Of a DNA stretch of 64,000 nt, positions 1 through 45,048 are shown one piece after another (position 1 is the first letter of the stretch; each line of letters starts with the position of its first letter). Position numbers and translations under genes: made by a program. Source of the stretch: Eledone cirrhosa (lineage: Eukaryota); assembly GCA_964016885.1 (NCBI GenBank), contig CAXHJY010001394.1:124001-188000 (forward strand), read 5' to 3'. The notes under the pieces were generated by a model. That model searched no databases and had not been told where the DNA came from. It was given only the letters and a program-made list of their open reading frames with translations.

Positions 1-67
1 TGTGCATACAGGAGTTCCCATGGACAGCCAGTAATATGTAATAGCCTGCAGGATGATAATAAACAGA

Positions 68-120
68 AGAGGGTTAATTACAGAGCCCTGATAGAGGGTT
101 AATAACAGAGCCCTGATAGA
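68..120. repeat. 25-bp tandem duplication inside the RT QGS motif
   Basis: agagggttaattacagagccctgat followed by agagggttaataacagagccctgat; present in all six units. Confidence 0.9.
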
Positions 121-807
121 CTTGTTCACTCAACTCCTCACTATAGCCATCATTACTTTTAACCTTACTGACTGCTCCTCCATACATGGCTTTTACTGCT
201 CTCACAAGCCACTCATATACCCCTAGTTTTCTAAGTTATACATCAGATTATGGAAGGGGGAAGTCTCACAGAAGCTCTCTCTGGGTCAACAAATGCCAAG
301 TAGAGGGGCTTATTTTAGCTAGGTACTACTCTTGCAGTTGCCACACAAGGAAGAGGACATCAGTGGTACTTTTACCTGGCACAAATCCAAACTTCATCTC
401 ATCTAGGTTAACTTGGTCCCTAATCAGCTGTGTTATAAATCTAACACCTTCATGAAGTGGTCCATCTAATATTTCTATAGTTTTCTAGCTCTAGTACATC
501 TCCTTTGCCCTTGTAGCAGTTGATGATGATGATACTACACCATTTATTTGGTATGACACCATTTTGTATTACATGCTGTACGATACCAGTGGTTAAGATG
601 TGACCCACCACCCCAGATACTTTCAGTATCTCAGCAACTATCACCAATGGACAAGATACTTTCTCTGTCTTCATATCCTTAATTACCTTACTACACTACT
701 GCTTACTTGTATGGCTGGACCCTCTGTTGGGCTCACTTTCCGTAGACTATCTTCCTCCCATGCATTCTCCTCATTCAGTAATCTTTCATAAAGGCATTTC
801 CATGTTA

Positions 808-1003
808 CAAAGGTTGGCTGAAAAGTTCATAGACTATCAATGATAGCATGATGCTAGAGCTGTGAAATCTTGCCTGCATTAATTTCAACTCTTCTTATTA
901 ATAACTGCATTGTTTCCTTCCAGGGACTATGTTGAAAAATAAACCTCATTTGGTCATTCCATGAGTGTATCTTGGTCTGCCTATGAACTTTTCAGCTGAC
1001 CCT
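808..1003. mobile_element. Tc1/mariner-like MITE (~195 bp) inserted in the minus-strand LINE
   Basis: Imperfect TIRs aggttggctgaaaagttcatag ... ctatgaacttttcagctgaccct, with TA immediately 5' (806-807); interrupts LINE homology. Copies at 12223-12418, 26804-26999, 39801-39996, 51214-51409. Confidence 0.75.
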
Positions 1004-1717
1004 ATTCAGCATCAGTGAGCCCAAATGCCCCATTATCATCCTGGACACACTTTACCCCAACATCACAATTTGCCCTCACACACTGCCTCACAATCCTGAA
1101 CATCTCATGTATTTCATCCTCACATCATAAAACCAACTGAAATTATATATTCTCTGCTTCCCTCCTTGCAAAGAATACTTCTTGCCTAGCTTCCTGTAGT
1201 GTACCCTCCAGCTGCCTCCATTCTGCCATTATTCCATGCCTGTCTCTTGGCCTTAACTGTCTCATCTACCCTAGTGTTTCACCACCAAGATACTCTCCTC
1301 TCTGAAGCCCTGCTCCAGCCACAGATCTAGTTTGACACCTTCAGCAAAGGTTCTTTAAGGAACTCCCACTGTTCCCCTATATTGTATGTTTCTATTTGTT
1401 CTTCCTTACTGTTGTAAAGATCAAACAAAATATCTCTAAATTTGGAACTGGCTGAGGGGTCCTTTAACTTCCATATCCTTCTCCTCCAAGTTGCCCTCAG
1501 TCTTCAAGTTCATCTAAGTCTATGAAATCACTAACTACTGGGTTATGTTGGGAGGTGCATTCTTCCCCAGGGGGTGGGGATTGTGTGTTTACAAATGTCA
1601 ATATCTCATCTTCTGGTGAGGATAAAAATCTGACTGGCATGCTCCTCTGACCAATAGGTGTTGAAGTGGTTGTCGGGTAAACGTTAAGACCCTCTGATAT
1701 ACATATATATATATATA

Positions 1718-1975
1718 CTAGCAGTGGTACCCGGCGTTGCACGGGATAACGTATTTCGGAACGCGGGCCGCCATCTTCCACTTCAGCCGGTCGCCCTAAA
1801 GTGTTGGCTATTCAGTCTACTTGAGGCCAGTTGGTGAGGGGGGGGTACAGCTTTCAGTGTGCTACTACCCTCACGGTCAAATAGAAAGGGAGAGGAAGAA
1901 AAGTCAGCGTTAATATCGTGCTACACGTTTGAAAGGTTGGATGACCTTAGAGTTCACCAGGGTGGGGGGTTCTAA
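1718..1975 (-). mobile_element. Helitron-type 3' terminus and adjacent fragment (internal extent uncertain)
   Basis: Minus strand reads CCCGTGCAACGCCGGG (GC hairpin, 1730-1745), 8 nt, then CTAG|T (1718-1721) running into a (TA)n tract, the canonical Helitron 3' signature. Copies have CTAG at 13133, 27714, 40711, 52124. No 5' TC end identified. Confidence 0.65.
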
Positions 1976-2039
1976 AAGTATCTATCTTGGTATTTTATCT
2001 TAGAAGTAATCATTACAGAGTGTACTGGGTGTATTTTAG

Positions 2040-2831
2040 TGGGCAGTAATTCCATAAAGAACACAGTATAATCTGTGGACACAAGCCTTGCAGTGTGATT
2101 ACAGGCAGGTTAATGGGAAAGATAGATTATATATGTGACATGATGTACATGAGAAGTGAGGACACAGACCACACATGAAATAGATTCCTACAACTGTCAG
2201 GGAGGCTCCCTAGAATTACAGATGACATATTTCAATATCTCGGTGATCAAGTTAGCAGTGGAGGAAGAATCTCTAAAAGTGTAATACCCAGGATAAGGAC
2301 AGGCTGGAAGAAGTTTAGAGTACTGTTCCATCTGTTGACAACAAAGGGCTTCTCTCTCAGAATGGAGGCTAGACTGCTTGATACTTATGTGTGGTCTGCA
2401 ATCTACACCCCAGCCATGCCCCTTCCACTACCACTCCTTAGCTATTTCTCTCCATTAATACTCCTCACATTTCAAGCAGTTTTCTCATCTCAATGAAAGA
2501 AAAATATTGGGCTCAAGAGAAGTCTTCAGTTATGCCATGGTGTGGCAACCTCCCTAGGGTTGGGCAGAGTGTAAATGAGAGTGAAATTAGGTATGAGAGG
2601 GATCATATGCAGTATACAAGAGAGTAGATTACATTGGTATGGTCATGTGATGGGTATAAAGGATGACAGCTGTATAAAAATGTGCTGGGCAATCAAAGTT
2701 GATGGAAGTTATGAAGGCGGAAGACCCAGGATGACCTGGGATGAGGTGATAAAAGATGACTTTGCACAATTGCAACTCTCAAAGACAATGACACAGGATA
2801 GAGATCTTGAGATGTATGCAGCAATACAGAA
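2040..2831 (+). mobile_element. Decayed RTE-clade LINE C-terminal fragment
   Basis: Translates (with frameshifts) to FQYLGDQVSSGG..RIRTGWKKFR.L..LLTTKGFSLR and RLHWYGHVM..GRPRMTWDEVIK. Interrupted by unrelated sequence at ~2409-2564 and truncated by the satellite at 2832. Confidence 0.88.
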
Positions 2832-5800
2832 GGCCCTGTGCGTCGATCGTGGGCCGGCCGGATGTTGACGGATCGATGTGTAATTAGAAGTACATGTGCG
2901 GACACTCATTGGCTGTGCGTGGTATGCATTTCAGCAAGATATCTCCGTAACATCAAGAGTTATGGCTGTGGAGGCACACCTAGTCAAACGTAAACAAGCT
3001 CTGGAGCGTATACGCTTCGCGATTTTGTTTACGTTTGACTAGGTGTGCCTCCACAGCCACAACTCTTGATGTTACGGAGATATCTTGCTGAAATGCATAC
3101 CACGCACAGCCAATGAGTGTCCGCACATGTACTTCTAATTACACATCGATCCGTCAACATCCGGCCGGCCCACGATCGACGCACAGGGCCGGATGGCCCG
3201 TTTGCAGTGAATTTTCACCGGAATCGATCTGTAATTACTGGTACATGTGCGGACACACATTTGCTGTGTGTGGTGTGATTTTCACGAAAAACTGCCCATG
3301 CTAAATGAGGAAGCTGAAGTCCGCCGGCGAATGGTGTGCTTCGAAGAAAACTAATTCGAAAATGACCGTTTGCAGGCGGAGTAACCTTTTCGATCGTGGG
3401 CCAGCCGCCCGTGGTGGGATACATCTGTAATTACTGGTACATGTGCGGACACACATTTGCTGTGTGTGGTGTGATTTTCGAGAAAGACTGCCCATGCTAA
3501 ATGAGGAAGCTGAAGTCCGCCGGCGAATGGTGTGCTTCGAAGAAAACTAATTCGAAAATGACTATTTGCCGGCGGAATCACCTTTTCGGTCCTGGTCCGG
3601 CCGGATCTTGCCGGATCGATCGGAAATTTGTGGACCATGTTCGGAAGGCCATTGTGCATGTGTGGTGAAAAAAATTTGTGTCGAAATCTTCTCGGAAAAT
3701 AACGGATCGCCGGCGGAGATTGCCATTTCGATCGTGGGCCGGCCGGATCTTGTCGGATCGATTCGGACATATGTGCATCGTGTTCGCAAGGCCCTTGTCT
3801 ATGTGTGGTGTGATTTTCATAAAGAAATTCCGAAAAACCCAGTTTTAAATCTGATTTCGCCAAAGAATTTTGGCTATCAGATCGGGTTGAAAGGTATGGT
3901 TTCAGGTCGATCTGAAAGTCTAAAATGGAATTCACTCGGTTAGCTAACTTTTGATATATCGGAGATATCTTTCTGAAAATCACACCACACACTCCCAATG
4001 AGTGTCTGCACATGTACCAGTAATTACAGATGGATCCCACCACGGGCGGCCGGCCCACGATCGAAAAGGTTACTCCGAAGCACACCATTCGCCGGCGGAA
4101 TTCATTTAGCATGGGCAGTTTTTCTCGAAAATCACACCACACACAGCCAATGAGTGTCCGCACATGTACCAGTAATTACAGATGGATCCCACCACGGGCG
4201 GCTGGCCCACGATCGAAAAGGTTACTCCGCCTGCAAACGGTCATTTTCGAATTAGTTTTCTTCGAAGCACACCATTCGCCGGCGGACTTCAGCTTCCTCA
4301 TTTAGCATGGGCAGTTTTTCTCGAAAATCACACCACACACAGCAAATGTGTGTCCGCACATGTACCAGTAATTACAGATCGATTCCGGTGAAAATTCACT
4401 GAAAACGGGCCATTCTGCCCTGTGCGTCGATCGTGGGCCGGCCGGATGTTGACGGATCGATGTGTAATTAGAAGTACATGTGCGGACACTCATTGGCTGT
4501 GCGTGGTATGCATTTCAGCAAGATATCTCCGTAACATCAAGAGTTATGGCTGTGGAGGCACACCTAGTCAAACGTAAACAAGCTCTGGAGCGTATACGCT
4601 TCGCGATTTTGTTTACGTTTGACTAGGTGTGCCTCCACAGCCACAACTCTTGATGTTACGGAGATATCTTGCTGAAATGCATACCACGCACAGCCAATGA
4701 GTGTCCGCACATGTACTTCTAATTACACATCGATCCGTCAACATCCGGCCGGCCCACGATCGACGCACAGGGCCGGATGGCCCGTTTTCAGTGAATTTTC
4801 ACCGGAATCGATCTGTAATTACTGGTACATGTGCGGACACACATTTGCTGTGTGTGGTGTGATTTTCACGAAAAACTGCCCATGCTAAATGAGGAAGCTG
4901 AAGTCCGCCGGCGAATGGTGTGCTTCGAAGAAAACTAATTCGAAAATGACCGTTTGCAGGCGGAGTAACCTTTTCGATCGTGGGCCAGCCGCCCGTGGTG
5001 GGATACATCTGTAATTACTGGTACATGTGCGGACACACATTTGCTGTGTGTGGTGTGATTTTCGAGAAAGACTGCCCATGCTAAATGAGGAAGCTGAAGT
5101 CCGCCGGCGAATGGTGTGCTTCGAAGAAAACTAATTCGAAAATGACTATTTGCCGGCGGAATCACCTTTTCGGTCCTGGTCCGGCCGGATCTTGCCGGAT
5201 CGATCGGAAATTTGTGGACCATGTTCGGAAGGCCATTGTGCATGTGTGGTGAAAAAAATTTGTGTCGAAATCTTCTCGGAAAATAACGGATCGCCGGCGG
5301 AGATTGCTATTTCGATCGTGGGCCGGCCGGATCTTGTCGGATCGATTCGGACATATGTGCATCGTGTTCGCAAGGCCCTTGTCTATGTGTGGTGTGATTT
5401 TCATAAAGAAATTCCGAAAAACCCAGTTTTAAATCTGATTTCGCCAAAGAATTTTGGCTATCAGATCGGGTTGAAAGGTATGGTTTCAGGTCGATCTGAA
5501 AGTCTAAAATGGAATTCACTCGGTTAGCTAACTATTGATATATCGGAGATATCTTTCTGAAAATCACACCACACACTCCCAATGAGTGTCTGCACATGTC
5601 CCAGTAATTACAGATGGATCCCACCACGGGCGGCCGGCCCACGATCGAAAAGGTTACTCCGAAGCACACCATTCGCCGGCGGAATTCATTTAGCATGGGC
5701 AGTTTTTCTCGAAAATCACACCACACACAGCCAATCAGTGTCCGCACATGTACCAGTAATTACAGATGGATCCCACTACGGGCGGCTGGCCCACGATCGA

Positions 5801-5935
5801 AAAGGTTACTCCGCCTGCAAACGGTCATTTTCGAATTCGTTTTCTTCGAAGCACACCATTCGCCGGCGGACTTCAGCTGCCTCATTTAGCATGGGCAGCT
5901 TTTCTCGAAAATCACACCACACACAGCCAATGAGT
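2832..5935. repeat. Palindromic CpG-rich 1584-bp satellite block, unit 1 (about 2 copies)
   Basis: ORFs recur at +1584 (3113/4697) and the same peptides appear on both strands. Apex loops are at 2998-3024 and 4582-4608. Internal submonomer spacing is 196/152 bp (gtaattac at 3231, 3427, 4020, 4172, 4368). Confidence 0.97.
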
Positions 5936-5978
5936 TTAAAATACTCACCGTTTGATTTGGAAAAACTTAAAATGCTCA

Positions 5979-6010
5979 CATATATATGTGTATGTATTTA
6001 TCTATGCATG

Positions 6011-6056
<46 letters not shown>

Positions 6057-6552
6057 TGTATTTATCTATGTATTTATCTATATGCATGGATATATATATA
6101 TATATATATATTTATCTATGTATTTATCTATATGCATGGATATATATATATATATATATATATATGTATTTATCTATGCATGTATGAATATATAAAATAT
6201 ATATATATATATATGTGTGTATGTATTTATCTATGCATGTATGAATATATAAAATATATATATATATATATATGTATGTATTTATCTATGCATGTATATA
6301 TATATAAATATATACATAAATATATATATATATATATGTATTTATCTATGCATGTGTGCATACATATATATATATATATATGTATTTATCTATACATGTA
6401 TGTATATATATATATATACATATATAAGTATTTATCTATACATGTATGTATATATATATATACATATATATGTATTTATCTATACATGTATGTATATATA
6501 TATATATATATATATGTATATAAGTATTTATCTATACATGTATGTATATATA
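5979..6552. repeat. Compound (TA)n microsatellite/minisatellite punctuated by gtatttatctat(g/a)catg
   Basis: Direct reading. Copies at 20561-21134, 33558-34131, 44971-45544, 57968-58541. Confidence 0.97.
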
Positions 6553-6641
6553 AAATATTGTCATGTTTACAAAAATATTTTTCTAATATCGTGTTTAATA
6601 TTTTATATTGTCGTCTGCTTCTCTTCTCACGTGGTTACTAA

Positions 6642-7016
6642 CTCTCTCACCCTCTCTCTCTTTCCCCTCTCATACAACCCCTTCTTTCTCTTTCTTTCCC
6701 CTCTCACACAACCTCTTCTTTCTCTCTCTTTTTGCCAGTCCCTTCTCTCACTCTCTCTCCCTCTTCCTTTTTTTATCTCTTTCTTTCTGTCTCTGTTTCC
6801 CTCCTATAGACATTCTCTCTCTCTCTTTCTGCTCTCACTCAGCCTTCTCTCTCTTTCCCCTCTCACACAGTCTTCTCTCTCTCTCTTTCCCCTCTCACAC
6901 AGCATTCTCTCTCTCTCTCTCTCTCTTTCCCCTCTCACACAGCATTCTCTCTCTCTCTCTCTCTTTATTTCCCCTCTCACACAGCCTTCTCTCTCTATCT
7001 ATCTATCTCTCTCTCT
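6642..7016. repeat. Polypyrimidine (CT)n minisatellite punctuated by tttcccctctcacacagc
   Basis: Direct reading. Copies at 21224-21597, 34221-34594, 45634-46007, 58631-59004. Confidence 0.95.
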
Positions 7017-7297
7017 GGAGATTTTTTAACACAAAGTCACACAAGGATTAGAAAAATGGCGATTATCACTTTGAAAGTAACAATTATGCAATAAATAGTT
7101 GTTATTGCCACGTCTCGTATCCTCCTTTGGCAATGTGTAAAATGTTAGCGAGATCGAGTGAACAATACACAAGTTATAATACTTTACAGACGGGACTTAT
7201 ACAGTAGATGTAGCAAAATGCGTAGATTACGATTCTTGAGACGAGATTAAAATATACGATTATGGGATACTTTAAGAAGACGAGTAGATGTTTGAGT

Positions 7298-7655
7298 AGA
7301 TTTAGCTGCTTTTTCTAGCATTTTTAGTTATACTTTGAAGCAAATTTTTTTTGTTACTATTATATTAAAAGTTATCTGGTTACGTTATTTGACTGGTATT
7401 TCTAGCATTTTACAAGGACCACGTGTGTGTTTTATTTGAGGAAGATCTAGTTGTTATTTCTGATATTTTCTTCATCAAGTTAGTTGCTATTTCCTGCATC
7501 CTCTTGAAGACAAGGAATAATAATGAATTAGCTGCTGTTTCTAGTAGGTTCTATGGTAGTGGTGAGCGTGGGAGGGAGGTTTGACTGCTATTTTTAGCAG
7601 GTTCTAAGGCATTGAGGTTTATGTTTTACGAGAGATTTGGCTGTTATTTCTAACA
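7298..7655 (+). repeat. Seven degenerate direct copies of a ~23-bp motif (consensus about agatttggctgctatttctagca) with variable spacers
   Basis: Copies start at ~7298, 7385, 7443, 7476, 7524, 7577, 7633, with an eighth at 9273. Repeated in each macro-unit (+14581, +27578, +38991, +51988). Confidence 0.75.
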
Positions 7656-8014
7656 TGTTATAATGGAGAGAGAGAGAGAGAGTATAAGATATACAGAGAG
7701 AGGGAGTATAAGATATAGAGAGAGGGGAAACGGCCGATGTTTACGTTGAGAAAACCTAATAAAATGTTATAAATGGGTTTATAAAGAATAGAATGAGATA
7801 AACAAGACAAAGTTAGATAAAATAAATCAGCTGTAAGGATATTATACGATATATTTATAATATTTTAATATATTTTTCCTGGTCGTCTGCTGCCATTGAT
7901 AGAGAGAGGAGTGGTGGGAGGTAGCCATAACAACCGTGGTAGCAGCACTGAGGTTTGTTTTTAAAGAAGTGAATACAAGAAAAACAAGCAACTAAGAATA
8001 TTAATCTCTTAAAC

Positions 8015-8840
8015 CCTTCAAGATGTGTATGACAAGAAAGAAGACGTTTTAGAGTCGTATGACATAGATGATAACTGGAAATTCTTACGTGACAACTTAC
8101 TGCAGGCTACTGAAGAAACTTGTGGCTGGAGCAGAGCTCCGACCAGACAGAGAGTGACCTGGTGGTGGGACAACACGGTAGATAAGGCCATTAGAGACAA
8201 AAGACTAGCATGGAACACTTGAAAAAATGGTGGGAGTAGAGACCGATACACAGCTGCTAAGAGAGAAGCTAGACGTCAGATGTACTTAGCACGCACGGAG
8301 GCTGAGAGTAGGAGGTTTGCCAATGTTCTGTGATGGGAAGATCAGAGGCGTGCGGTGTTCCACATTGCAAGGCATGGTGTCAGTGTAAATCAGGATGTTG
8401 TTGGAGATAAGTGTATCCGGAATGATGCCAGTGTACTTGGTGTCACGAATGATCAAAAAAAGGAGGCCTGGAAATATCATTATGAGAGGCTGATGAATTG
8501 TGGAGAATGAATGGGAGAGAGGGAAACTATCCCCAGTAGACCCAACAGAGGGACCAGCTATTGAGATTGGGGAATATAGGGTACAAGAGGCAATTAAGGA
8601 AATGAAGAATGGCAAGGCTACTGGACTCTAGGGGATAGTTGCTCAGATGCTGAAGGCATCAGAAGTAGGCACTAAACTGGTTACACACATCATCAATCAA
8701 GCTATATATGGTAGTGTCATACCCAAAGAATGGTGCAGCAGTATTCTCATAAATTGGTACAAAGGTAAAGGGGATGCTCTGGAGAGGAGCAATTATATGG
8801 GCACTTCAATATTTAATGATACAGGTGATAAAACAACAAC
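8015..8840 (+). mobile_element. Decayed RTE-clade LINE fragment (endonuclease-RT linker and RT N-terminus)
   Basis: Peptides WKFLRDNLLQATEETCGW..TWWWDNTVDKAIRDKRLAW, IKEMKNGKATG, IPKEWCSSILINWYKGKGDALERSNY. In-frame stops (e.g. TGA ending 8222) and frameshifts. Confidence 0.9.
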
Positions 8841-8989
8841 TATAAGGTAAATAAGTCACCTTATGTTATTTACAAACATTAACGTCCACCTTAATATGAA
8901 ATAATCACCATAAAAGAGGAAGCGAGGGCATCGGCTACCGGCACCCGGGCTGCTCTCTCATCCTGAGTGGGATCTTCCAGCGTTGATGC

Positions 8990-9658
8990 ATCACCACGTT
9001 GATGTAAAACTTGGTTTTTCACTTTGGGATAATACACGTATTTGCAACTTATTTATGTTTATTTACGTTGAGCGTAATCGATTTGTTTCCATATCTCCAC
9101 GCGTTTTATTTCATAGTCATAGTTATAAAATTAGAAAACTTTCTTTAAAAAAAACAAATTAACGCGGGTAACTACAAGATAACCTTGTTTTGTAATACTG
9201 GCAGACATTGAAGATTCTTTATGGATGGTTGATACTCAGCTGCCAGGAACACAGGATGTGGCAGAGGGTATAAGATTTGCCTGCTATTTCTAGCAACTTC
9301 AATGACCACATAATTGGTTTGTAATTTTGTTTTAAAGTGTAAGGGTTTACACAGCCATTTATGAATTTCTAAGAGATACGTTTACGATGAGATACACTTA
9401 TTAAAAATACTTTCATTGCATAGTTCCGTTTGTAAAGGCTTTAATTTACTGTACTACTCGGGAACCTTTTAATAACACACAGGATTAAGTCCATGTTTGT
9501 TCAACCAATTAATGGTATCTGCTGTAGTAGGGGTAACGATGGAAATATGGCGATGATTAACTCCACCCTGGGGTATAATGTAGAATTCATATTTTTCAAC
9601 TTGCCCATACGTGTATTATCCCAAAGTGAAAAACCAAGTTTTACATCAACGTGGTGAT
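8990..9658. mobile_element. Putative non-autonomous TIR element (MITE) with perfect 52-bp terminal inverted repeats
   Basis: 8990-9041 atcaccacgttgatgtaaaacttggtttttcactttgggataatacacgtat is the exact reverse complement of 9607-9658. Could be CAC..GTG termini with an AT target duplication. Confidence 0.7.
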
Positions 9659-9723
9659 TTCAAAGTTTATTTATTTACACATGGTGGTGGGGGGGGATAC
9701 GGAAATAAACGAAGGTTGACGAA

Positions 9724-9785
9724 TGACGTCACATTCTTCTACTTTCACTTCTGACAGCCAATTCCGTTGTAGTGCCATATATAAA
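9724..9785 (+). promoter_or_regulatory. Putative Pol II promoter-like cluster: CRE, CCAAT, TATA
   Basis: TGACGTCA at 9724-9731, agCCAAT with core at 9758-9762, TATATAAA at 9778-9785, in canonical order. Motif match only, no expression evidence. Copies at +14581, +27578, +38991, +51988. Confidence 0.3.
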
Positions 9786-9910
9786 CATGATGGTCACGGC
9801 TGGAACAACTTTAATTATAGGTCTGCTCAATCATACTAACATGGGATTTAAATTGAGCAAAGTTGGAGTTGTCTCCCTTGGTACTTTACTACGCTACGTT
9901 TGTTTATATA

Positions 9911-12900
9911 TATCATCATCATCATCTTCAACATTATCATTTAACGTTCATTGTTATCACACCTGCATGGGTTATACAGGTTGTCACGTTATGAGACATG
10001 TCAGGTGTGGAGACCAGGTCTCATATGGATGTGTATTTTGGTTTGGTTTCTAAGGCTGGATGCCCTTCTTAACACGAAACACGTTACAATGTGGACTGCA
10101 CACTTTTGTATGACCACCTTACAGGATGAACTGGGTGTTTTTATTGTTGTAGCATCAACGAGGTGTGTGGGATATTTAGCAGGTGAGGGCAGGGCCTTAT
10201 GAATAGGAAGGGGTGATGAGAAGATTGGTGAAGACTAGTGTGTTCTCTACATGTTTGTTTTATTTCATTTTCAGCACATGGGAGGGGGGGGGGGTCTTCT
10301 ACATTACAGCATGACGCCAGAGATCTCGATCCTGTGACATTTCCATTGAGAGGTTTAATTGGGCAAGGCGAGCTTTTATTATTTCATCCCAAGCTTTCCT
10401 AGGTCTTCCCCTTTCATAGTTAACATCGACTTTGACAACCCTGCACCTTGTTATACAGCTGTCACCTTCCATATACATCACATGTCCAAACCACCACAAT
10501 CTCCTCTCCTCTACACTGCATCTGACCTCTCTTATACCTAGTTTCTCTCTCAGTTTATTAATGCTTGTTGTTCATGCACACTATTACACATCTATCAGAT
10601 CCTGTAAACTTCATTTCTTTCCAGTCTTTATAGGTCCTCTGAATATATTGCCCTGGTCTCACTTCAATGTAACATTGCTGTTTGTACACAGACTTCATAC
10701 AATCTGCCTTTCACTTTCAGGGGAAATCATTTTGTAGGCATCAGTAGTAGTAGCTCCCTAAACTGTTTCCATCCCATTCTCACTCAGGCTACTGTACCTT
10801 CAGAACACCCACCTCCACTGTTAATTTGGTTAATTAAGTTAACAGAAATTATGAACCGGTTTCTACAGAGCCTTCTGGACATTTAACCCTTTAGCATTTA
10901 AACCAGCCATACCTAGCCAGAATACTCTCACATCTTTCTGTTCAAACCAGCCATAACTGGCCACTCATACTGACGTTAAGGTATTGTTCTCAATATAAAT
11001 AATATCAAAATCTCATAGATTCGATATTATATGAGATAATTATGTAAGATAAAGCCTTTACCACAAAAATACAATAGTATATATAGAGTAATAAAAATGC
11101 TAAAGGGTAAAAGTAGCTTATTATTTTGTGAGCTCTTGCTACTTATTGCTCTTGTGCATCAAGAACATACACAGCTTACATTTTGTTGCTAATCTCACTG
11201 AGATCCAACTACATCTCTTGTTTATCCATAGTTTGGAATTTCTACCTACTCCTTTCCTTTAGAATGATCAAGGCCATTTTCTTGTGGGGATCTAGGCCCT
11301 GTTTTCCTTTCTATTTTGCCAAGTTATCTTACATCACTTTCATTCTAGACCATGCTTCCAGGTTTGGAATTTCTCCTCTAATTTTACCACAGATTAAGTG
11401 ACAAGGGTTCAATCATGTGCATACAGGAGTTCCCATGGACAGCCAGTAATATGTAATAGCCTGCAGGATGATAATAAACAGAAGAGGGTTAATTACAGAG
11501 CCCTGATAGAGGGTTAATAACAGAGCCCTGATAGACTTGTTCACTCAACTCCTCACTATAGCCATCATTACTTTTAACCTTACTGACTGCTCCTCCATAC
11601 ATGGCTTTTACTGCTCTCACAAGCCACTCATATACCCCTAGTTTTCTAAGTTATACACCAGATTATGGAAGGGGGAAGTCTCACAGAAGCTCTCTCTGGG
11701 TCAACAAATGCCAAGTAGAGGGGCTTATTTTAGCTAGGTACTACTCTTGCAGTTGCCACACAAGGAAGAGGACATCAGTGGTACTTTTACCTGGCACAAA
11801 TCCAAACTTCATCTCATCTAGGTTAACTTGGTCCCTAATCAGCTGTGTTATAAATCTAACACCTTCATGAAGTGGTCCATCTAATATTTCTATAGTTTTC
11901 TAGCTCTAGTACATCTCCTTTGCCCTTGTAGCAGTTGATGATGATGATACTACACCATTTATTTGGTATGACACCATTTTGTATTACATGCTGTACGATA
12001 CCAGTGGTTAAGATGTGACCCACCACCCCAGATACTTTCAGTATCTCAGCAACTATCACCAATGGACAAGATACTTTCTCTGTCTTCATATCCTTAATTA
12101 CCTTACTACACTACTGCTTACTTGTATGGCTGGACCCTCTGTTGGGCCCACTTTCCGTAGACTATCTTCCTCCCATGCATTCTCCTCATTCAGTAATCTT
12201 TCATAAAGGCATTTCCATGTTACAAAGGTTGGCTGAAAAGTTCATAGACTATCAATGATAGCATGATGCTAGAGCTGTGAAATCTTGCCTGCATTAATTT
12301 CAACTCTTCTTATTAATAACTGCATTGTTTCCTTCCAGGGACTATGTTGAAAAATAAACCTCATTTGGTCATTCCATGAGTGTATCTTGGTCTGCCTATG
12401 AACTTTTCAGCTGACCCTATTCAGCATCAGTGAGCCCAAATGCCCCATTATCATCCTGGACACACTTTACCCCAACATCACAATTTGCCCTCACACACTG
12501 CCTCACAATCCTGAACATCTCATGTATTTCATCCTCACATCATAAAACCAACTGAAATTATATATTCTCTGCTTCCCTCCTTGCAAAGAATACTTCTTGC
12601 CTAGCTTCCTGTAGTGTACCCTCCAGCTGCCTCCATTCTGCCATTATTCCATGCCTGTCTCTTGGCCTTAACTGTCTCATCTACCCTAGTGTTTCACCAC
12701 CAAGATACTCTCCTCTCTGAAGCCCTGCTCCAGCCACAGATCTAGTTTGACACCTTCAGCAAAGGTTCTTTAAGGAACTCCCACTGTTCCCCTATATTGT
12801 ATGTTTCTATTTGTTCTTCCTTACTGTTGTAAAGATCAAACAAAATATCTCTAAATTTGGAACTGGCTGAGGGGTCCTTTAACTTCCATATCCTTCTCCT

Positions 12901-13105
12901 CCAAGTTGCCCTCAGTCTTCAAGTTCATCTAAGTCTATGAAATCACTAACTACTGGGTTATGTTGGGAGGTGCATTCTTCCCCAGGGGGTGGGGATTGTG
13001 TGTTTACAAATGTCAATATCTCATCTTCTGGTGAGGATAAAAATCTGACTGGCATGCTCCTCTGACCAATAGGTGTTGAAGTGGTTGTCGGGTAAACGTT
13101 AAGAC
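9911..13105 (-). mobile_element. Decayed 5'-truncated RTE-clade LINE with 3' UTR and (GAT)n tail, containing two nested MITEs
   Basis: (catcat)n tail at ~9911-9925. C-terminal peptide WWFGHV..GRPRKAWDEII at 10299-10499 (W.GHV and GRP are typical of RTE C-termini). Degenerate YADD motif (PWELLYAHD) at ~11410-11437. RT N-terminus at 11865-12089; APE end at ~12912-13100. Confidence 0.9.
10887..11107. mobile_element. piggyBac-like MITE (221 bp) inserted in the minus-strand LINE
   Basis: TTAA|CCCTTTAGCATTT ... AAATGCTAAAGGG|TAAA. CCC..GGG termini and a TTAA target are piggyBac hallmarks; the right TSD is degenerate. Copies at 25468-25688, 38465-38685, 49878-50098, 62875-63095. Confidence 0.8.
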
Positions 13106-13453
13106 CCTCTGATATACATATATATATATATACTAGCAGTGGTACCCGGCGTTGCACGGGATAACGTATTTCGGAACGCGGGCCGCCATCTTCCACTTCA
13201 GCCGGTCGCCCTAAAGTGTTGGCTATTCAGTCTACTTGAGGCCAGTTGGTGAGGGGGGGTAAAGCTTTCAGTGTGCTACTACCCTCACGGTCAAATAGAA
13301 AGGGAGAGGAAGAAAAGTCAGCGTTAATATCGTGCTACACGTTTGAAAGGTTGGATGACCTTAGAGTTCACCAGGGTGGGGGGTTCTAAAAGTATCTATC
13401 TTGGTATTTTATCTTAGAAGTAATCATTACAGAGTGTACTGGGTGTATTTTAG

Positions 13454-14245
13454 TGGGCAGTAATTCCATAAAGAACACAGTATAATCTGTGGACACAAGC
13501 CTTGCAGTGTGATTACAGGCAGGTTAATGGGAAAGATAGATTATATATGTGACATGATGTACATGAGAAGTGAGGACACAGACCACACATGAAATAGATT
13601 CCTACAACTGTCAGGGAGGCTCCCTAGAATTACAGATGACATATTTCAATATCTCGGTGATCAAGTTAGCAGTGGAGGAAGAATCTCTAAAAGTGTAATA
13701 CCCAGGATAAGGACAGGCTGGAAGAAGTTTAGAGTACTGTTCCATCTGTTGACAACAAAGGGCTTCTCTCTCAGAATGGAGGCTAGACTGCTTGATACTT
13801 ATGTGTGGTCTGCAATCTACACCCCAGCCATGCCCCTTCCACTACCACTCCTTAGCTATTTCTCTCCATTAATACTCCTCACATTTCAAGCAGTTTTCTC
13901 ATCTCAATGAAAGAAAAATATTGGGCTCAAGAGAAGTCTTCAGTTATGCCATGGTGTGGCAACCTCCCTAGGGTTGGGCAGAGTGTAAATGAGAGTGAAA
14001 TTAGGTATGAGAGGGATCATATGCAGTATACAAGAGAGTAGATTACATTGGTATGGTCATGTGATGGGTATAAAGGATGACAGCTGTATAAAAATGTGCT
14101 GGGCAATCAAAGTTGATGGAAGTTATGAAGGCGGAAGACCCAGGATGACCTGGGATGAGGTGATAAAAGATGACTTTGCACAATTGCAACTCTCAAAGAC
14201 AATGACACAGGATAGAGATCTTGAGATGTATGCAGCAATACAGAA
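13454..14245 (+). mobile_element. Copy of RTE C-terminal fragment
   Basis: Identical ORF at 13989. Confidence 0.88.
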
Positions 14246-17200
14246 GGCCCTGTGCGTCGATCGTGGGCCGGCCGGATGTTGACGGATCGATGTGTAATTA
14301 GAAGTACATGTGCGGACACTCATTGGCTGTGCGTGGTATGCATTTCAGCAAGATATCTCCGTAACATCAAGAGTTATGGCTGTGGAGGCACACCTAGTCA
14401 AACGTAAACAAGCTCTGGAGCGTATACGCTTCGCGATTTTGTTTACGTTTGACTAGGTGTGCCTCCACAGCCACAACTCTTGATGTTACGGAGATATCTT
14501 GCTGAAATGCATACCACGCACAGCCAATGAGTGTCCGCACATGTACTTCTAATTACACATCGATCCGTCAACATCCGGCCGGCCCACGATCGACGCACAG
14601 GGCCGGATGGCCCGTTTGCAGTGAATTTTCACCGGAATCGATCTGTAATTACTGGTACATGTGCGGACACACATTTGCTGTGTGTGGTGTGATTTTCACG
14701 AAAAACTGCCCATGCTAAATGAGGAAGCTGAAGTCCGCCGGCGAATGGTGTGCTTCGAAGAAAACTAATTCGAAAATGACCGTTTGCAGGCGGAGTAACC
14801 TTTTCGATCGTGGGCCAGCCGCCCGTGGTGGGATACATCTGTAATTACTGGTACATGTGCGGACACACATTTGCTGTGTGTGGTGTGATTTTCGAGAAAG
14901 ACTGCCCATGCTAAATGAGGAAGCTGAAGTCCGCCGGCGAATGGTGTGCTTCGAAGAAAACTAATTCGAAAATGACTATTTGCCGGCGGAATCACCTTTT
15001 CGGTCCTGGTCCGGCCGGATCTTGCCGGATCGATCGGAAATTTGTGGACCATGTTCGGAAGGCCATTGTGCATGTGTGGTGAAAAAAATTTGTGTCGAAA
15101 TCTTCTCGGAAAATAACGGATCGCCGGCGGAGATTGCCATTTCGATCGTGGGCCGGCCGGATCTTGTCGGATCGATTCGGACATATGTGCATCGTGTTCG
15201 CAAGGCCCTTGTCTATGTGTGGTGTGATTTTCATAAAGAAATTCCGAAAAACCCAGTTTTAAATCTGATTTCGCCAAAGAATTTTGGCTATCAGATCGGG
15301 TTGAAAGGTATGGTTTCAGGTCGATCTGAAAGTCTAAAATGGAATTCACTCGGTTAGCTAACTTTTGATATATCGGAGATATCTTTCTGAAAATCACACC
15401 ACACACTCCCAATGAGTGTCTGCACATGTACGAGTAATTACAGATGGATCCCACCACGGGCGGCCGGCCCACGATCGAAAAGGTTACTCCGAAGCACACC
15501 ATTCGCCGGCGGAATTCATTTAGCATGGGCAGTTTTTCTCGAAAATCACACCACACACAGCCAATGAGTGTCCGCACATGTACCAGTAATTACAGATGGA
15601 TCCCACCACGGGCGGCTGGCCCACGATCGAAAAGGTTACTCCGCCTGCAAACGGTCATTTTCGAATTAGTTTTCTTCGAAGCACACCATTCGCCGGCGGA
15701 CTTCAGCTTCCTCATTTAGCATGGGCAGTTTTTCTCGAAAATCACACCACACACAGCAAATGTGTGTCCGCACATGTACCAGTAATTACAGATCGATTCC
15801 GGTGAAAATTCACTGAAAACGGGCCATTCTGCCCTGTGCGTCGATCGTGGGCCGGCCGGATGTTGACGGATCGATGTGTAATTAGAAGTACATGTGCGGA
15901 CACTCATTGGCTGTGCGTGGTATGCATTTCAGCAAGATATCTCCGTAACATCAAGAGTTATGGCTGTGGAGGCACACCTAGTCAAACGTAAACAAGCTCT
16001 GGAGCGTATACGCTTCGCGATTTTGTTTACGTTTGACTAGGTGTGCCTCCACAGCCACAACTCTTGATGTTACGGAGATATCTTGCTGAAATGCATACCA
16101 CGCACAGCCAATGAGTGTCCGCACATGTACTTCTAATTACACATCGATCCGTCAACATCCGGCCGGCCCACGATCGACGCACAGGGCCGGATGGCCCGTT
16201 TTCAGTGAATTTTCACCGGAATCGATCTGTAATTACTGGTACATGTGCGGACACACATTTGCTGTGTGTGGTGTGATTTTCACGAAAAACTGCCCATGCT
16301 AAATGAGGAAGCTGAAGTCCGCCGGCGAATGGTGTGCTTCGAAGAAAACTAATTCGAAAATGACCGTTTGCAGGCGGAGTAACCTTTTCGATCGTGGGCC
16401 AGCCGCCCGTGGTGGGATACATCTGTAATTACTGGTACATGTGCGGACACACATTTGCTGTGTGTGGTGTGATTTTCGAGAAAGACTGCCCATGCTAAAT
16501 GAGGAAGCTGAAGTCCGCCGGCGAATGGTGTGCTTCGAAGAAAACTAATTCGAAAATGACTATTTGCCGGCGGAATCACCTTTTCGGTCCTGGTCCGGCC
16601 GGATCTTGCCGGATCGATCGGAAATTTGTGGACCATGTTCGGAAGGCCATTGTGCATGTGTGGTGAAAAAAATTTGTGTCGAAATCTTCTCGGAAAATAA
16701 CGGATCGCCGGCGGAGATTGCCATTTCGATCGTGGGCCGGCCGGATCTTGTCGGATCGATTCGGACATATGTGCATCGTGTTCGCAAGGCCCTTGTCTAT
16801 GTGTGGTGTGATTTTCATAAAGAAATTCCGAAAAACCCAGTTTTAAATCTGATTTCGCCAAAGAATTTTGGCTATCAGATCGGGTTGAAAGGTATGGTTT
16901 CAGGTCGATCTGAAAGTCTAAAATGGAATTCACTCGGTTAGCTAACTTTTGATATATCGGAGATATCTTTCTGAAAATCACACCACACACTCCCAATGAG
17001 TGTCTGCACATGTACCAGTAATTACAGATGGATCCCACCACGGGCGGCCGGCCCACGATCGAAAAGGTTACTCCGAAGCACACCATTCGCCGGCGGAATT
17101 CATTTAGCATGGGCAGTTTTTCTCGAAAATCACACCACACACAGCCAATGAGTGTCCGCACATGTACCAGTAATTACAGATGGATCCCACCACGGGCGGC

Positions 17201-20200
17201 TGGCCCACGATCGAAAAGGTTACTCCGCCTGCAAACGGTCATTTTCGAATTAGTTTTCTTCGAAGCACACCATTCGCCGGCGGACTTCAGCTTCCTCATT
17301 TAGCATGGGCAGTTTTTCTCGAAAATCACACCACACACAGCAAATGTGTGTCCGCACATGTACCAGTAATTACAGATCGATTCCGGTGAAAATTCACTGA
17401 AAACGGGCCATTCTGCCCTGTGCGTCGATCGTGGGCCGGCCGGATGTTGACGGATCGATGTGTAATTAGAAGTACATGTGCGAACACTCATTGGCTGTGC
17501 GTGGTATGCATTTCAGCAAGATATCTCCGTAACATCAAGAGTTATGGCTGTGGAGGCACACCTAGTCAAACGTAAACAAGCTCTGGAGCGTATACGCTTC
17601 GCGATTTTGTTTACGTTTGACTAGGTGTGCCTCCACAGCCACAACTCTTGATGTTACGGAGATATCTTGCTGAAATGCATACCACGCACAGCCAATGAGT
17701 GTCCGCACATGTACTTCTAATTACACATCGATCCGTCAACATCCGGCCGGCCCACGATCGACGCACAGGGCCGGATGGCCCGTTTTCAGTGAATTTTCAC
17801 CGGAATCGATCTGTAATTACTGGTACATGTGCGGACACACATTTGCTGTGTGTGGTGTGATTTTCACGAAAAACTGCCCATGCTAAATGAGGAAGCTGAA
17901 GTCCGCCGGCGAATGGTGTGCTTCGAAGAAAACTAATTCGAAAATGACCGTTTGCAGGCGGAGTAACCTTTTCGATCGTGGGCCAGCCGCCCGTGGTGGG
18001 ATACATCTGTAATTACTGGTACATGTGCGGACACACATTTGCTGTGTGTGGTGTGATTTTCGAGAAAGACTGCCCATGCTAAATGAGGAAGCTGAAGTCC
18101 GCCGGCGAATGGTGTGCTTCGAAGAAAACTAATTCGAAAATGACTATTTGCCGGCGGAATCACCTTTTCGGTCCTGGTCCGGCCGGATCTTGCCGGATCG
18201 ATCGGAAATTTGTGGACCATGTTCGGAAGGCCATTGTGCATGTGTGGTGAAAAAAATTTGTGTCGAAATCTTCTCGGAAAATAACGGATCGCCGGCGGAG
18301 ATTGCCATTTCGATCGTGGGCCGGCCGGATCTTGTCGGATCGATTCGGACATATGTGCATCGTGTTCGCAAGGCCCTTGTCTATGTGTGGTGTGATTTTC
18401 ATAAAGAAATTCCGAAAAACCCAGTTTTAAATCTGATTTCGCCAAAGAATTTTGGCTATCAGATCGGGTTGAAAGGTATGGTTTCAGGTCGATCTGAAAG
18501 TCTAAAATGGAATTCACTCGGTTAGCTAACTTTTGATATATCGGAGATATCTTTCTGAAAATCACACCACACACTCCCAATGAGTGTCTGCACATGTACC
18601 AGTAATTACAGATGGATCCCACCACGGGCAGCCGGCCCACGATCGAAAAGGTTACTCCGAAGCACACCATTCGCCGGCGGAATTCATTTAGCATGGGCAG
18701 TTTTTCTCGAAAATCACACCACACACAGCCAATGAGTGTCCGCACATGTACCAGTAATTACAGATGGATCCCACCACGGGCGGCTGGCCCACGATCGAAA
18801 AGGTTACTCCGCCTGCAAACGGTCATTTTCGAATTAGTTTTCTTCGAAGCACACCATTCGCCGGCGGACTTCAGCTTCCTCATTTAGCATGGGCAGTTTT
18901 TCTCGAAAATCACACCACACACAGCAAATGTGTGTCCGCACATGTACCAGTAATTACAGATCGATTCCGGTGAAAATTCACTGAAAACGGGCCATTCTGC
19001 CCTGTGCGTCGATCGTGGGCCGGCCGGATGTTGACGGATCGATGTGTAATTAGAAGTACATGTGCGGACACTCATTGGCTGTGCGTGGTATGCATTTCAG
19101 CAAGATATCTCCGTAACATCAAGAGTTATGGCTGTGGAGGCACACCTAGTCAAACGTAAACAAGCTCTGGAGCGTATACGCTTCGCGATTTTGTTTACGT
19201 TTGACTAGGTGTGCCTCCACAGCCACAACTCTTGATGTTACGGAGATATCTTGCTGAAATGCATACCACGCACAGCCAATGAGTGTCCGCACATGTACTT
19301 CTAATTACACATCGATCCGTCAACATCCGGCCGGCCCACGATCGACGCACAGGGCCGGATGGCCCGTTTTCAGTGAATTTTCACCGGAATCGATCTGTAA
19401 TTACTGGTACATGTGCGGACACACATTTGCTGTGTGTGGTGTGATTTTCACGAAAAACTGCCCATGCTAAATGAGGAAGCTGAAGTCCGCCGGCGAATGG
19501 TGTGCTTCGAAGAAAACTAATTCGAAAATGACCGTTTGCAGGCGGAGTAACCTTTTCGATCGTGGGCCAGCCGCCCGTGGTGGGATACATCTGTAATTAC
19601 TGGTACATGTGCGGACACACATTTGCTGTGTGTGGTGTGATTTTCGAGAAAGACTGCCCATGCTAAATGAGGAAGCTGAAGTCCGCCGGCGAATGGTGTG
19701 CTTCGAAGAAAACTAATTCGAAAATGACTATTTGCCGGCGGAATCACCTTTTCGGTCCTGGTCCGGCCGGATCTTGCCGGATCGATCGGAAATTTGTGGA
19801 CCATGTTCGGAAGGCCATTGTGCATGTGTGGTGAAAAAAATTTGTGTCGAAATCTTCTCGGAAAATAACGGATCGCCGGCGGAGATTGCCATTTCGATCG
19901 TGGGCCGGCCGGATCTTGTCGGATCGATTCGGACATATGTGCATCGTGTTCGCAAGGCCCTTGTCTATGTGTGGTGTGATTTTCATAAAGAAATTCCGAA
20001 AAACCCAGTTTTAAATCTGATTTCGCCAAAGAATTTTGGCTATCAGATCGGGTTGAAAGGTATGGTTTCAGGTCGATCTGAAAGTCTAAAATGGAATTCA
20101 CTCGGTTAGCTAACTATTGATATATCGGAGATATCTTTCTGAAAATCACACCACACACTCCCAATGAGTGTCTGCACATGTCCCAGTAATTACAGATGGA

Positions 20201-20517
20201 TCCCACCACGGGCGGCCGGCCCACGATCGAAAAGGTTACTCCGAAGCACACCATTCGCCGGCGGAATTCATTTAGCATGGGCAGTTTTTCTCGAAAATCA
20301 CACCACACACAGCCAATCAGTGTCCGCACATGTACCAGTAATTACAGATGGATCCCACTACGGGCGGCTGGCCCACGATCGAAAAGGTTACTCCGCCTGC
20401 AAACGGTCATTTTCGAATTCGTTTTCTTCGAAGCACACCATTCGCCGGCGGACTTCAGCTGCCTCATTTAGCATGGGCAGCTTTTCTCGAAAATCACACC
20501 ACACACAGCCAATGAGT
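14246..20517. repeat. Palindromic 1584-bp satellite block, unit 2 (about 4 copies)
   Basis: ORF starts 14527, 16111, 17695, 19279 (period 1584); same junctions as unit 1. Confidence 0.97.
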
Positions 20518-20592
20518 TTAAAATACTCACCGTTTGATTTGGAAAAACTTAAAATGCTCACATATATATGTGTATGTATTTATCTATGCATG

Positions 20593-20638
<46 letters not shown>

Positions 20639-22595
20639 TGTATTTATCTATGTATTTATCTATATGCATGGATATATATATATATATATATATTTATCTA
20701 TGTATTTATCTATATGCATGGATATATATATATATATATATATATATGTATTTATCTATGCATGTATGAATATATAAAATATATATATATATATATGTGT
20801 GTATGTATTTATCTATGCATGTATGAATATATAAAATATATATATATATATATATGTATGTATTTATCTATGCATGTATATATATATAAATATATACATA
20901 AATATATATATATATATATGTATTTATCTATGCATGTGTGCATACATATATATATATATATATGTATTTATCTATACATGTATGTATATATATATATATA
21001 CATATATAAGTATTTATCTATACATGTATGTATATATATATATACATATATATGTATTTATCTATACATGTATGTATATATATATATATATATATATGTA
21101 TATAAGTATTTATCTATACATGTATGTATATATAAAATATTGTCATGTTTACAAAAATATTTTTCTAATATCGTGTTTAATATTTTATATTGTCGTCTGC
21201 TTCTCTTCTCACGTGGTTACTAACTCTCTCACCCTCTCTCTCTTTCCCCTCTCATACAACCCCTTCTTTCTCTTTCTTTCCCCTCTCACACAACCTCTTC
21301 TTTCTCTCTCTTTTTGCCAGTCCCTTCTCTCACTCTCTCTCCCTCTTCCTTTTTTATCTCTTTCTTTCTGTCTCTGTTTCCCTCCTATAGACATTCTCTC
21401 TCTCTCTTTCTGCTCTCACTCAGCCTTCTCTCTCTTTCCCCTCTCACACAGTCTTCTCTCTCTCTCTTTCCCCTCTCACACAGCATTCTCTCTCTCTCTC
21501 TCTCTCTTTCCCCTCTCACACAGCATTCTCTCTCTCTCTCTCTCTTTATTTCCCCTCTCACACAGCCTTCTCTCTCTATCTATCTATCTCTCTCTCTGGA
21601 GATTTTTTAACACAAAGTCACACAAGGATTAGAAAAATGGCGATAATCACTTTGAAAGTAACAATTATGCAATAAATAGTTGTTATTGCCACGTCTCGTA
21701 TCCTCCTTTGGCAATGTGTAAAATGTTAGCGAGATCGAGTGAACAATACACAAGTTATAATACTTTACAGACGGGACTTATACAGTAGATGTAGCAAAAT
21801 GCGTAGATTACGATTCTTGAGACGAGATTAAAATATACGATTATGGGATACTTTAAGAAGACGAGTAGATGTTTGAGTAGATTTAGCTGCTTTTTCTAGC
21901 ATTTTTAGTTATACTTTGAAGCAAATTTTTTTTGTTACTATTATATTAAAAGTTATCTGGTTACGTTATTTGACTGGTATTTCTAGCATTTTACAAGGAC
22001 CACGTGTGTGTTTTATTTGAGGAAGATCTAGTTGTTATTTCTGATATTTTCTTCATCAAGTTAGTTGCTATTTCCTGCATCCTCTTGAAGACAAGGAATA
22101 ATAATGAATTAGCTGCTGTTTCTAGTAGGTTCTATGGTAGTGGTGAGCGTGGGAGGGAGGTTTGACTGCTATTTTTAGCAGGTTCTAAGGCATTGAGGTT
22201 TATGTTTTACGAGAGATTTGGCTGTTATTTCTAACATGTTATAATGGAGAGAGAGAGAGAGAGTATAAGATATACAGAGAGAGGGAGTATAAGATATAGA
22301 GAGAGGGGAAACGGCCGATGTTTACGTTGAGAAAACCTAATAAAATGTTATAAATGGGTTTATAAAGAATAGAATGAGATAAACAAGACAAAGTTAGATA
22401 AAATAAATCAGCTGTAAGGATATTATACGATATATTTATAATATTTTAATATATTTTTCCTGGTCGTCTGCTGCCATTGATAGAGAGAGGAGTGGTGGGA
22501 GGTAGCCATAACAACCGTGGTAGCAGCACTGAGGTTTGTTTTTAAAGAAGTGAATACAAGAAAAACAAGCAACTAAGAATATTAATCTCTTAAAC

Positions 22596-23421: not shown

Positions 23422-23570
23422 TATAAGGTAAATAAGTCACCTTATGTTATTTACAAACATTAACGTCCACCTTAATATGAAATAATCACCATAAAAGAGG
23501 AAGCGAGGGCATCGGCTACCGGCACCCGGGCTGCTCTCTCATCCTGAGTGGGATCTTCCAGCGTTGATGC

Positions 23571-33514: not shown

Positions 33515-33589
33515 TTAAAATACTCACCGTTTGATTTGGAAAAACTTAAAATGCTCACATATATATGTGTATGTATTTATCTATGCATG

Positions 33590-33635
<46 letters not shown>

Positions 33636-45002: not shown

Positions 45003-45048
<46 letters not shown>

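Follow-up and report, generated by a model that had tools for sequence, protein, structure and literature searches.

A 1,584-bp satellite unit with a near-perfect 1-kb palindrome, nested in a tandem macro-array of Eledone cirrhosa

Introduction

Long inverted segments are uncommon within satellite monomers. The accessible part of PMC13081366 gives about 300 bp for TmSat2 of Tribolium madens and 80 bp for Trichogramma, and it calls the inverted segments of about 470 bp in the 1061-bp major satellite of Tribolium brevicornis (Mravinac et al. 2005) the most prominent reported. Here we analyse a 64,000-nt stretch of DNA from the cephalopod Eledone cirrhosa (GenBank assembly GCA_964016885.1, contig CAXHJY010001394.1, positions 124,001 to 188,000 of the forward strand), referred to below as the window and used for all coordinates, in which a 1,584-bp satellite unit carries two 480-bp arms in near-perfect inversion. 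If this structural reading is true, the dyad symmetry of the monomer is nearly perfect and as long as any yet reported within a satellite monomer. By description, it is set apart from the T. brevicornis satellite by four inversion centres, nine subrepeats, 98% identical arms and a 27-nt centre, and by being nested in a macro-unit with an 8.3-kb non-satellite segment.

The same portion of PMC13081366 describes TmSat2 as composed of short subunits, some of them inverted, with conserved inversion sites and predicted hairpins, much like the unit studied here. In contrast, TmSat2 arrays invert at the kilobase scale and lie in the putative (peri)centromeres of all chromosomes (PMC13081366), whereas all units here point one way within the window. 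Among transposons, Tetris, FB and Galileo are similar in having inverted arms of roughly 200-bp tandem subrepeats, in being non-coding and in their link to satellites, according to the sections of PMC4079207 drawn on here. Tetris, however, has a target-site duplication (TSD) of 8-10 bp together with flanking and middle domains (PMC4079207), none of which is found in our unit; unlike foldback elements, the unit also has no defined ends, and sequencing depth leaves little room for dispersed near-identical copies of it. The macrosatellites D4Z4, DXZ4 and NBL2 share with it kilobase tandem units and a CpG-rich component (PMC8122249, in excerpt), but the macro-unit here measures 11-15 kb and includes a variable-number palindromic sub-array, and no gene or Rfam RNA was found in it. 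A looser analogue is provided by the cichlid 'centroids', in which an inverted architecture occurs with transposon relics mixed with satellite; the available text of PMC13652916 describes two 15-kb inverted elements about 200 kb apart, whereas here a sub-kilobase palindrome sits in every monomer. By likeness of architecture, the unit works like the known palindromic satellites.

It is known that a long palindrome becomes a fragile site when its arms are nearly identical and its spacer is short, and in eukaryotic cells replication stalling is reported for a 12-bp but not for a 52-bp spacer (PMC7999016, in the part cited). With its 27 nt and paired tip, the centre described here would fall in the uncertain range between 12 and 52 bp as regards extrusion in vivo. 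Titles and abstracts of the open-access literature yielded no description of a cephalopod palindromic satellite or palindromic macrosatellite, and the accessible portion of PMC12988792 does not describe this repeat. The unit is distinguished from the palindromic satellites above by the 98% arms around a 27-nt centre, the four inversion centres, the CpG-island-like composition and the variable-number nesting in a macro-unit.

The palindrome around apex A

The reference copy of the palindrome, around an apex that we call A, spans 4102-5088 and consists of three parts (features in this and later lists carry no strand unless one is given).

4102-4581: left arm of apex A, 480 bp; subrepeats m7 (part), m8 and m9
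4582-4608: loop of apex A, 27 nt; reads as a decayed centre, with a 12-bp perfect palindrome at 4589-4600
4609-5088: right arm of apex A, 480 bp; subrepeats m1 (inverted), m2 and m3 (part)

The arms align without gaps and are about 98% identical over roughly 1 kb, with nine mismatches at 36, 166, 168, 260, 261, 397, 429, 434 and 462 bp from the loop. They stop at an internal indel; when one gap is allowed, the symmetry extends to 4067-5132 at 95%. The loop occurs 14 times in the window, always in the same orientation (reverse-complement loops, 0). Its spacing is 1584 bp in nine of nine intervals within satellite blocks and 9829-9830 bp between blocks. Full 480-bp arms are present at 9 of the 14 apexes, eight of them with nine mismatches and one with ten, and at the first apex of every block (5/14) the left arm measures 166 bp, with one mismatch. 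An earlier note on this DNA had put forward the arm coordinates, the 27-nt loop, about nine mismatches by eye, the 1584-bp recurrence, nine full apexes and shortened first left arms of about 166 bp; the exact counts agree with it on each of these points.

The note had also pointed to hairpin potential, and the predicted fold is indeed very stable. Folded as DNA, the 987-nt strand reaches -644.9 kcal/mol, compared with a mean of -141 (s.d. 6.4) for shuffled sequences (0/20 equal it), and the 101-mer at the apex has z = -14, with 0/200 shuffles as good. The 12-bp palindrome is centred in the loop, which aligns loosely to its own reverse complement; the loop therefore reads as a decayed continuation or centre of the arms and not as a random spacer. 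Selection for an RNA hairpin was considered and rejected, just two of the nine arm mismatches being G-T compatible on either strand.

Subrepeats and inversion centres

As the earlier note had suggested, the arms are composed of internal subrepeats. The entire unit can be divided into nine related subrepeats (m1-m9) of about 140-200 bp that are 48-98% alike. Their orientation switches four times per unit, at A, C, B and C'.

4764-4781: inversion centre C, the head-to-head junction m1/m2, about 69% symmetric, roughly 190 bp to the right of A
about 4410-4427: inversion centre C', mirror of C
5461-5499: decayed apex B, centre at 5480 (relative position, rel, 899), flanks about 70-72% symmetric; the copy in the first unit lies at 3877-3915

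Identity is 98% for m2/m8 and 93% for m3/m7, compared with about 60% for the inner subrepeats. The distances from a common tail motif to the centre are 73/73 nt at A and 73/72 nt at B, and for the tail alignment of m9 and m6, the subrepeats leading into A and B, 0/2000 shuffles were as good. We infer from this arrangement that A and B originated long ago as paralogous junctions when a palindromic unit was duplicated in tandem, and that the arms around A were equalised to 98% after the decay of the centre. The palindrome would then be the youngest symmetry of the unit.

The monomers are arranged head to tail and have constant length, as in a satellite. Each is made of related subunits, some of them inverted, as in satellites with intra-monomeric dyad symmetry, and the 14 units are near-identical, with 15 variable columns in 1520, as expected of concerted evolution. 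The unit has 48% GC and a CpG observed/expected ratio (o/e) of 1.15, versus 0.34 in the constant segment that separates the blocks and 0.04-0.36 across pieces resembling long interspersed nuclear elements (LINEs). No Pfam family was found at E <= 0.1 in the two open reading frames (ORFs) of the unit that were scanned. The default for such a unit is neutral satellite DNA.

The array and its block junctions

The whole 64-kb window is a single tandem array in which satellite blocks alternate with a constant segment of about 8.3 kb.

2832-5935: satellite block 1, n = 2 units, 3104 bp, loops at 2998 and 4582
14246-20517: satellite block 2, n = 4, 6272 bp, loops at 14412, 15996, 17580 and 19164
28827-33514: satellite block 3, n = 3, 4688 bp, loops at 28993, 30577 and 32161
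41824-44927: satellite block 4, n = 2, 3104 bp, loops at 41990 and 43574; the first unit looks recombinant by its single-nucleotide polymorphisms (SNPs)
53237-57924: satellite block 5, n = 3, 4688 bp, loops at 53403, 54987 and 56571
5936-14245: constant segment, first full copy, 8310 bp
20518-28826, 33515-41823 and 44928-53236: constant segment, copies of 8309 bp; partial copies at 1-2831 and 57925-64000

The length of each block is n x 1584 - 64 bp, and that of the macro-unit is 8245 + 1584n bp (11.4-14.6 kb). The four full copies of the constant segment are 99.97% identical and differ at two columns. Within the window, blocks hold just 2-4 units and satellite makes up 34% of the sequence. 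With a tandem unit of kilobase size, homogeneous and in many copies, the array has the properties of a macrosatellite.

Two features define the boundary between constant segment and satellite.

2572-2836, plus strand: 3' end of a LINE-like frame, which we take to be of RTE type from its motif; it stops at the left block junction, lacks the 3' untranslated region (UTR) and tail, and overlaps the arm by 5 nt
4352-4415: left-arm stretch of 64 bp that is absent at every block boundary, with the 8.3-kb segment in its place

The earlier note had attributed the short left arms to cutting by this LINE, which is unlikely. The junction frame aligns with a paralog in the constant segment up to 14250 (equivalent to 2836 in block 1), and the paralog extends about 360 bp further to a (GAT)n tail, none of which is present in the junction copy. 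LINE integration starts from the 3' end, and a copy without its 3' UTR and tail therefore does not represent an insertion into the arm unless a deletion followed. Moreover, the two ends of a block are both in left-arm orientation and lie 64 bp apart in unit phase; they are not inverted termini. At the ends of block 1 there is no direct repeat of more than 2 bp at the exact junction, and the best one, of 5 bp, needs 4-bp shifts on both sides. The 64-bp offset in phase between the block ends is most simply read as a replacement: the 8.3-kb segment would have taken the place of 64 bp in a single left arm, and amplification of the composite would have followed.

The identity of the frame itself is less firmly established: an Atlas search assigned it, at 0.96, to a cluster of endonuclease-reverse transcriptases, but the recognition value did not reach its threshold, and we count this as weak evidence, and homolog searches with two LINE-like fragments returned nothing at E <= 0.001.

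Homogenisation of units and arms

Among the nine full palindromes, left arms differ from one another by at most one base and right arms by none, while left and right arms differ by 9-10. All nine mismatches are kept in 9/9 full palindromes, the mismatch at 36 bp is kept at all 14 apexes, and a private SNP 97 bp from the loop has no mirror in the other arm. Together with the absence of any flipped loop, these fixed differences suggest that recent homogenisation acts between direct copies, unit to unit.

The position of a unit within its block is also recorded in its SNPs. Nine SNPs mark the terminal units in all five blocks, one marks the penultimate unit in four of the five, and SNP haplotypes also mark the first units. 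The first unit of block 4 has the SNP of the penultimate type but not the one that marks first units at rel 207; this is the pattern of a first/penultimate recombinant whose breakpoint lies between rel -165 and 207. For the extra unit of block 2, a breakpoint in the interval from rel 207 to 1051 would fit. From these mapped breakpoints, n appears to change by unequal exchange.

The earlier note had proposed, as one of two options, that the arms are kept alike by ongoing conversion from arm to arm, which would follow hairpin or cruciform formation. The proposal accounts for 98% arms flanking a decayed centre. It also accounts for the partner-less terminal arm, which has seven diagnostic SNPs in 250 bp, and for the right block edge, with nine diagnostic SNPs in 402 bp compared with 0-1 in the 359-bp palindrome of the first units (Fisher P = 0.004-0.02). 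However, an edge effect or a diverged donor explains this terminal excess as well, and the fixed mismatches, the unmirrored SNP, the uniform loop orientation and the left-right distance of 9-10 against 0-1 within arms all speak against exchange between arms. We therefore consider ongoing conversion very unlikely, while one part of the proposal stands, in that something keeps the two arms closer to each other than would be expected from their age. Older arm-to-arm conversion is plausible, its signs being weak but present: at rel 1347/1352, internal left arms match the right arm, while at these two columns the terminal unit, which lacks a partner, agrees with m1, m6, m7 and m9.

Transitions at CpG account for 2 of the 23 differences (junction base excluded), which has P = 0.0005 under 10-fold and P = 0.035 under 5-fold CpG hypermutation. 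So few transitions are expected without methylation-driven decay, and the satellite unit may be unmethylated.

A homogeneous array of what are likely hundreds to thousands of palindromes makes it possible to ask, in a natural setting, how a genome tolerates such structures and whether their arms are corrected against each other, the nine fixed mismatches and the asymmetric loop being built-in markers that can be scored by long reads.

Copy number and occurrence in public sequencing runs

Of 24 listed public runs, 20 carry part of the unit; they come from 17 studies and bear 16 organism labels, plus two wastewater metagenomes, and no RNA run is among them. Four public runs were compared with window positions 500-4101, and the evidence is taken from three of the 20, here X1, X2 and X17. 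The fourth, X23, consists of raw reads under the organism label of X11; it gave 0 reads in 1,938 million letters, which is no negative result. X1 is a run of organism A, for which one sample is listed; the other carriers have 15 further organism labels or are the two wastewater metagenomes (2022-2025).

In X1, six listed contigs cover the flank with 0-1 differences at a depth of 4,844-5,740 (about 5,400), and the depth at a unit-specific place, 3819, is 15,000. The resulting unit/flank ratio of 2.79 matches the value of 14/5 = 2.8 in the window, which leaves little room for near-identical units outside the macro-array and speaks against a large array composed purely of this exact unit. The diverged LINE paralogs in two contigs have depths of 5.2 and 3.7. 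If these represent single-copy depth, the genome holds about 1,000-1,500 macro-copies (13-18 Mb); if single-copy depth is 10-30, it holds 180-540, giving an overall range of roughly 200-1,500 macro-copies and 2-18 Mb. The repeat is thus, roughly, of high copy number, with 15,000 for the unit and about 5,400 for the flank versus 3.7-5.2 for single-locus contigs, and the macro-array is likely to be present in hundreds to over a thousand copies, with thousands of palindromes in the genome. When depths in X1 are added up over the subrepeats they reach 1e5-1e6, but these sums do not serve here as copy numbers, since short overlapping contigs and paralogs within the unit inflate them.

X1 also shows other letters at 3095-3099 and loose ends at 3050, 3094, 3513 and 4077, with one or the other at 3765 as well, and one diverged relative of the core/apex-A tail joins m3-type sequence directly. 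This genome thus contains a wider family, perhaps a non-palindromic one.

X2 (nine contigs) and X17 (two contigs) contain pieces of the unit only, 95-100% alike and at a depth of 2-3.4, with neither flank nor LINE paralogs. This fits carry-over rather than conservation, and a unit present at trace depth in unrelated public runs can mimic conservation across species. One X2 contig of 87 bp (2968-3054) comprises the loop and 30 bp of each arm without a difference, as expected when a genuine hairpin is represented in a 31-mer graph; another carries left-arm alleles.

These data bear on two further explanations. The palindrome or the array could be a fold-back or assembly artefact of long reads, as inverted repeats do hamper long-read sequencing (10.64898/2026.07.13.738322, in the part cited). 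This is scarcely credible in view of the nine fixed arm mismatches, the position-specific SNP haplotypes, the flank depth in X1 and the 87-bp contig from X2, a different sample. It is also highly improbable that the unit goes back to a hairpin replicon, viral or extrachromosomal, or that many species share it through conservation or transfer, as its CpG richness and its presence in 20 runs might suggest. Alternating inverted junctions resemble rolling-hairpin concatemers, but flip/flop loop isomers are absent, all 14 loops having one orientation. Transfer is countered by the trace depth without flank in X2 and X17. Exact-pattern scans gave two matches in viral contigs (IMG/VR), one in JGI metagenomes and none in GTDB, the three covering 20-26 bp and being at the level of chance, and blastn against plasmids and phages gave no match.

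The earlier note had also raised the option of a foldback transposon. The unit would in that case descend from a non-autonomous foldback element or miniature inverted-repeat transposable element (MITE), comparable to Tetris, FB and Galileo, via amplified tandem dimers. The sequence can be parsed accordingly: a C-to-C' element, about 1,230 bp long, would have near-identical terminal inverted repeats (TIRs) of 315 bp on the outside and decayed subrepeats inside, and it would alternate with a hairpin element of 380 bp. The long inverted arms of tandem subrepeats, the higher identity of the outer m2/m8 and m3/m7 pairs than of the inner subrepeats, the coincidence of the left block end with the C' junction and the diverged relatives in X1 are all consistent with such a descent. 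There is precedent in the TIR-220 satellite that arose from Tetris (PMC4079207) and in tandem transposon dimers that seed satellites (PMC5932611), as described in the excerpts of both sources. Against it, block 1 has no TSD at its ends, the block ends are not inverted termini, the unit has neither the flanking non-repeat domain nor the middle domain of Tetris, its two scanned ORFs match no Pfam family, and the depth ratio leaves little room for near-identical dispersed units. The features tested do not place the unit among foldback elements, and we regard this descent as unlikely; a foldback or MITE ancestor and past arm conversion are possible.

Proposed origin of the array

Our preferred interpretation, to which we assign a probability of roughly 0.65, is that the repeat is a complex satellite, neutral and composed of subunits in alternating orientation, which lies within a young macrosatellite and is homogenised through unequal exchange among adjacent direct copies, not through transposition or present-day arm-to-arm conversion. 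A palindromic unit of core and tail would first have been duplicated in tandem, which produces alternating head-to-head and tail-to-tail junctions. Next, cores on the B side would have been duplicated and the 1,584-bp higher-order unit established. The arms around A may have been equalised in the past by hairpin-templated conversion or by a single inverted re-copying. Meanwhile the unpaired centre and the arms of B would have decayed, and the palindrome likely survives because its asymmetric centre of 27 nt keeps extrusion low enough. In an event like break repair, 64 bp of a single left arm likely gave way to 8.3 kb of ordinary repeat-rich DNA, and the composite would recently have been amplified to hundreds of copies or more, with n drifting by unequal exchange.

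Several observations weigh against this interpretation. Over their distal 50 nt, the tails of A and B show no significant likeness (993/2000 shuffles as good), so that the homology of A and B rests on the proximal motif and its spacing. The 64-bp phase match could be due to chance, with an estimated probability of about 8%. One of the two mappable exchanges falls in the 372-bp apex interval, which makes up about 23% of the unit and thus shows no enrichment; the mismatch gradient along the arm is non-significant (P = 0.13), and the conversion signal is a single two-SNP patch within 8 bp of the junction. As to copy number, X1 is possibly the source sample of the window and so not independent, the depth of 15,000 refers to one position, and single-copy depth is taken from two contigs. 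The diverged core/tail relatives that X1 holds outside the window's unit imply a wider, possibly mobile, family. Finally, the evidence is confined to the window and the runs, and the location and ends of the array, as well as diverged dispersed relatives, lie outside this view.

A functional alternative is that the array is (peri)centromeric or structural chromatin DNA in which selection, for protein binding or for non-B structure, maintains the palindrome and the richness in CpG. Its likely megabase scale (2-18 Mb), high homogeneity and low CpG decay would agree with this, and dyad symmetries have been proposed as centromere features (PMC13081366 and PMC13652916, in the parts available). Yet satellite makes up just 34% of the window, and the remainder, with its transposon relics, is more like a young segmental amplification. 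We consider this alternative quite improbable. The same low expectation applies to its extended form, in which the array would serve an animal lineage as (peri)centromeric or domain-organising DNA, selection would maintain thousands of palindromes that are unmethylated and 98% perfect, and breaks at the apex would drive array turnover. If the array did bind CENP-A, it would provide centromere DNA for the lineage and support for the non-B-structure model; if it does not, it is a clear case of repeat evolution at three levels, those of subrepeat, palindromic monomer and macro-unit.

Content of the constant segment

The constant segment contains (TA)n and (TC)n tracts, LINE-like frame fragments, a Helitron-like end and small inverted-repeat elements, and by sequence it appears to be ordinary animal repeat DNA made up of transposon relics. 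ARAGORN found no tRNA gene in the window. Rfam gave 26 matches in positions 1-17500, all of them on the (TA)n tract, where miRNA families were matched with less than the gathering score. With Pfam, ten window ORFs matched no family at E <= 0.1, and five fragments gave two matches only, at chance level (E = 0.13 and 0.88).

A compound (TA)n microsatellite at 5980-6552 measures 573 bp by Tandem Repeats Finder (TRF) and has equal length in all five macro-units, with no variable column among four aligned copies. This invariance points to very recent amplification or strong homogenisation. The CpG boundary of the segment is sharp, with an o/e of 0.04-0.06 in the LINE-like pieces at 13404-14245 and 11400-12700 versus 1.15 in the satellite unit at 15830-17413, which suggests that the captured segment came from once heavily methylated DNA.

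At 13133-13160 on the minus strand (also at 1719-1746 and in the other copies), a short GC hairpin followed by CTAG lies beside (TA)n; we take this to be a Helitron-like 3' end. An element of about 230 bp at 10883-11112 has short terminal inverted repeats that begin with CCCTT after TTAA, and is presumably a piggyBac-type MITE. Like the 3' tails of the LINE-like pieces, it is reminiscent of repeats in octopods. A pair of 61-bp inverted repeats at 8990-9050 and 9598-9658, 95% alike and about 550 bp apart, possibly represents MITE ends or two inverted fragments. A degenerate 28-bp motif (family D9) is dispersed in six copies at 7298-7660 and 9273-9300.

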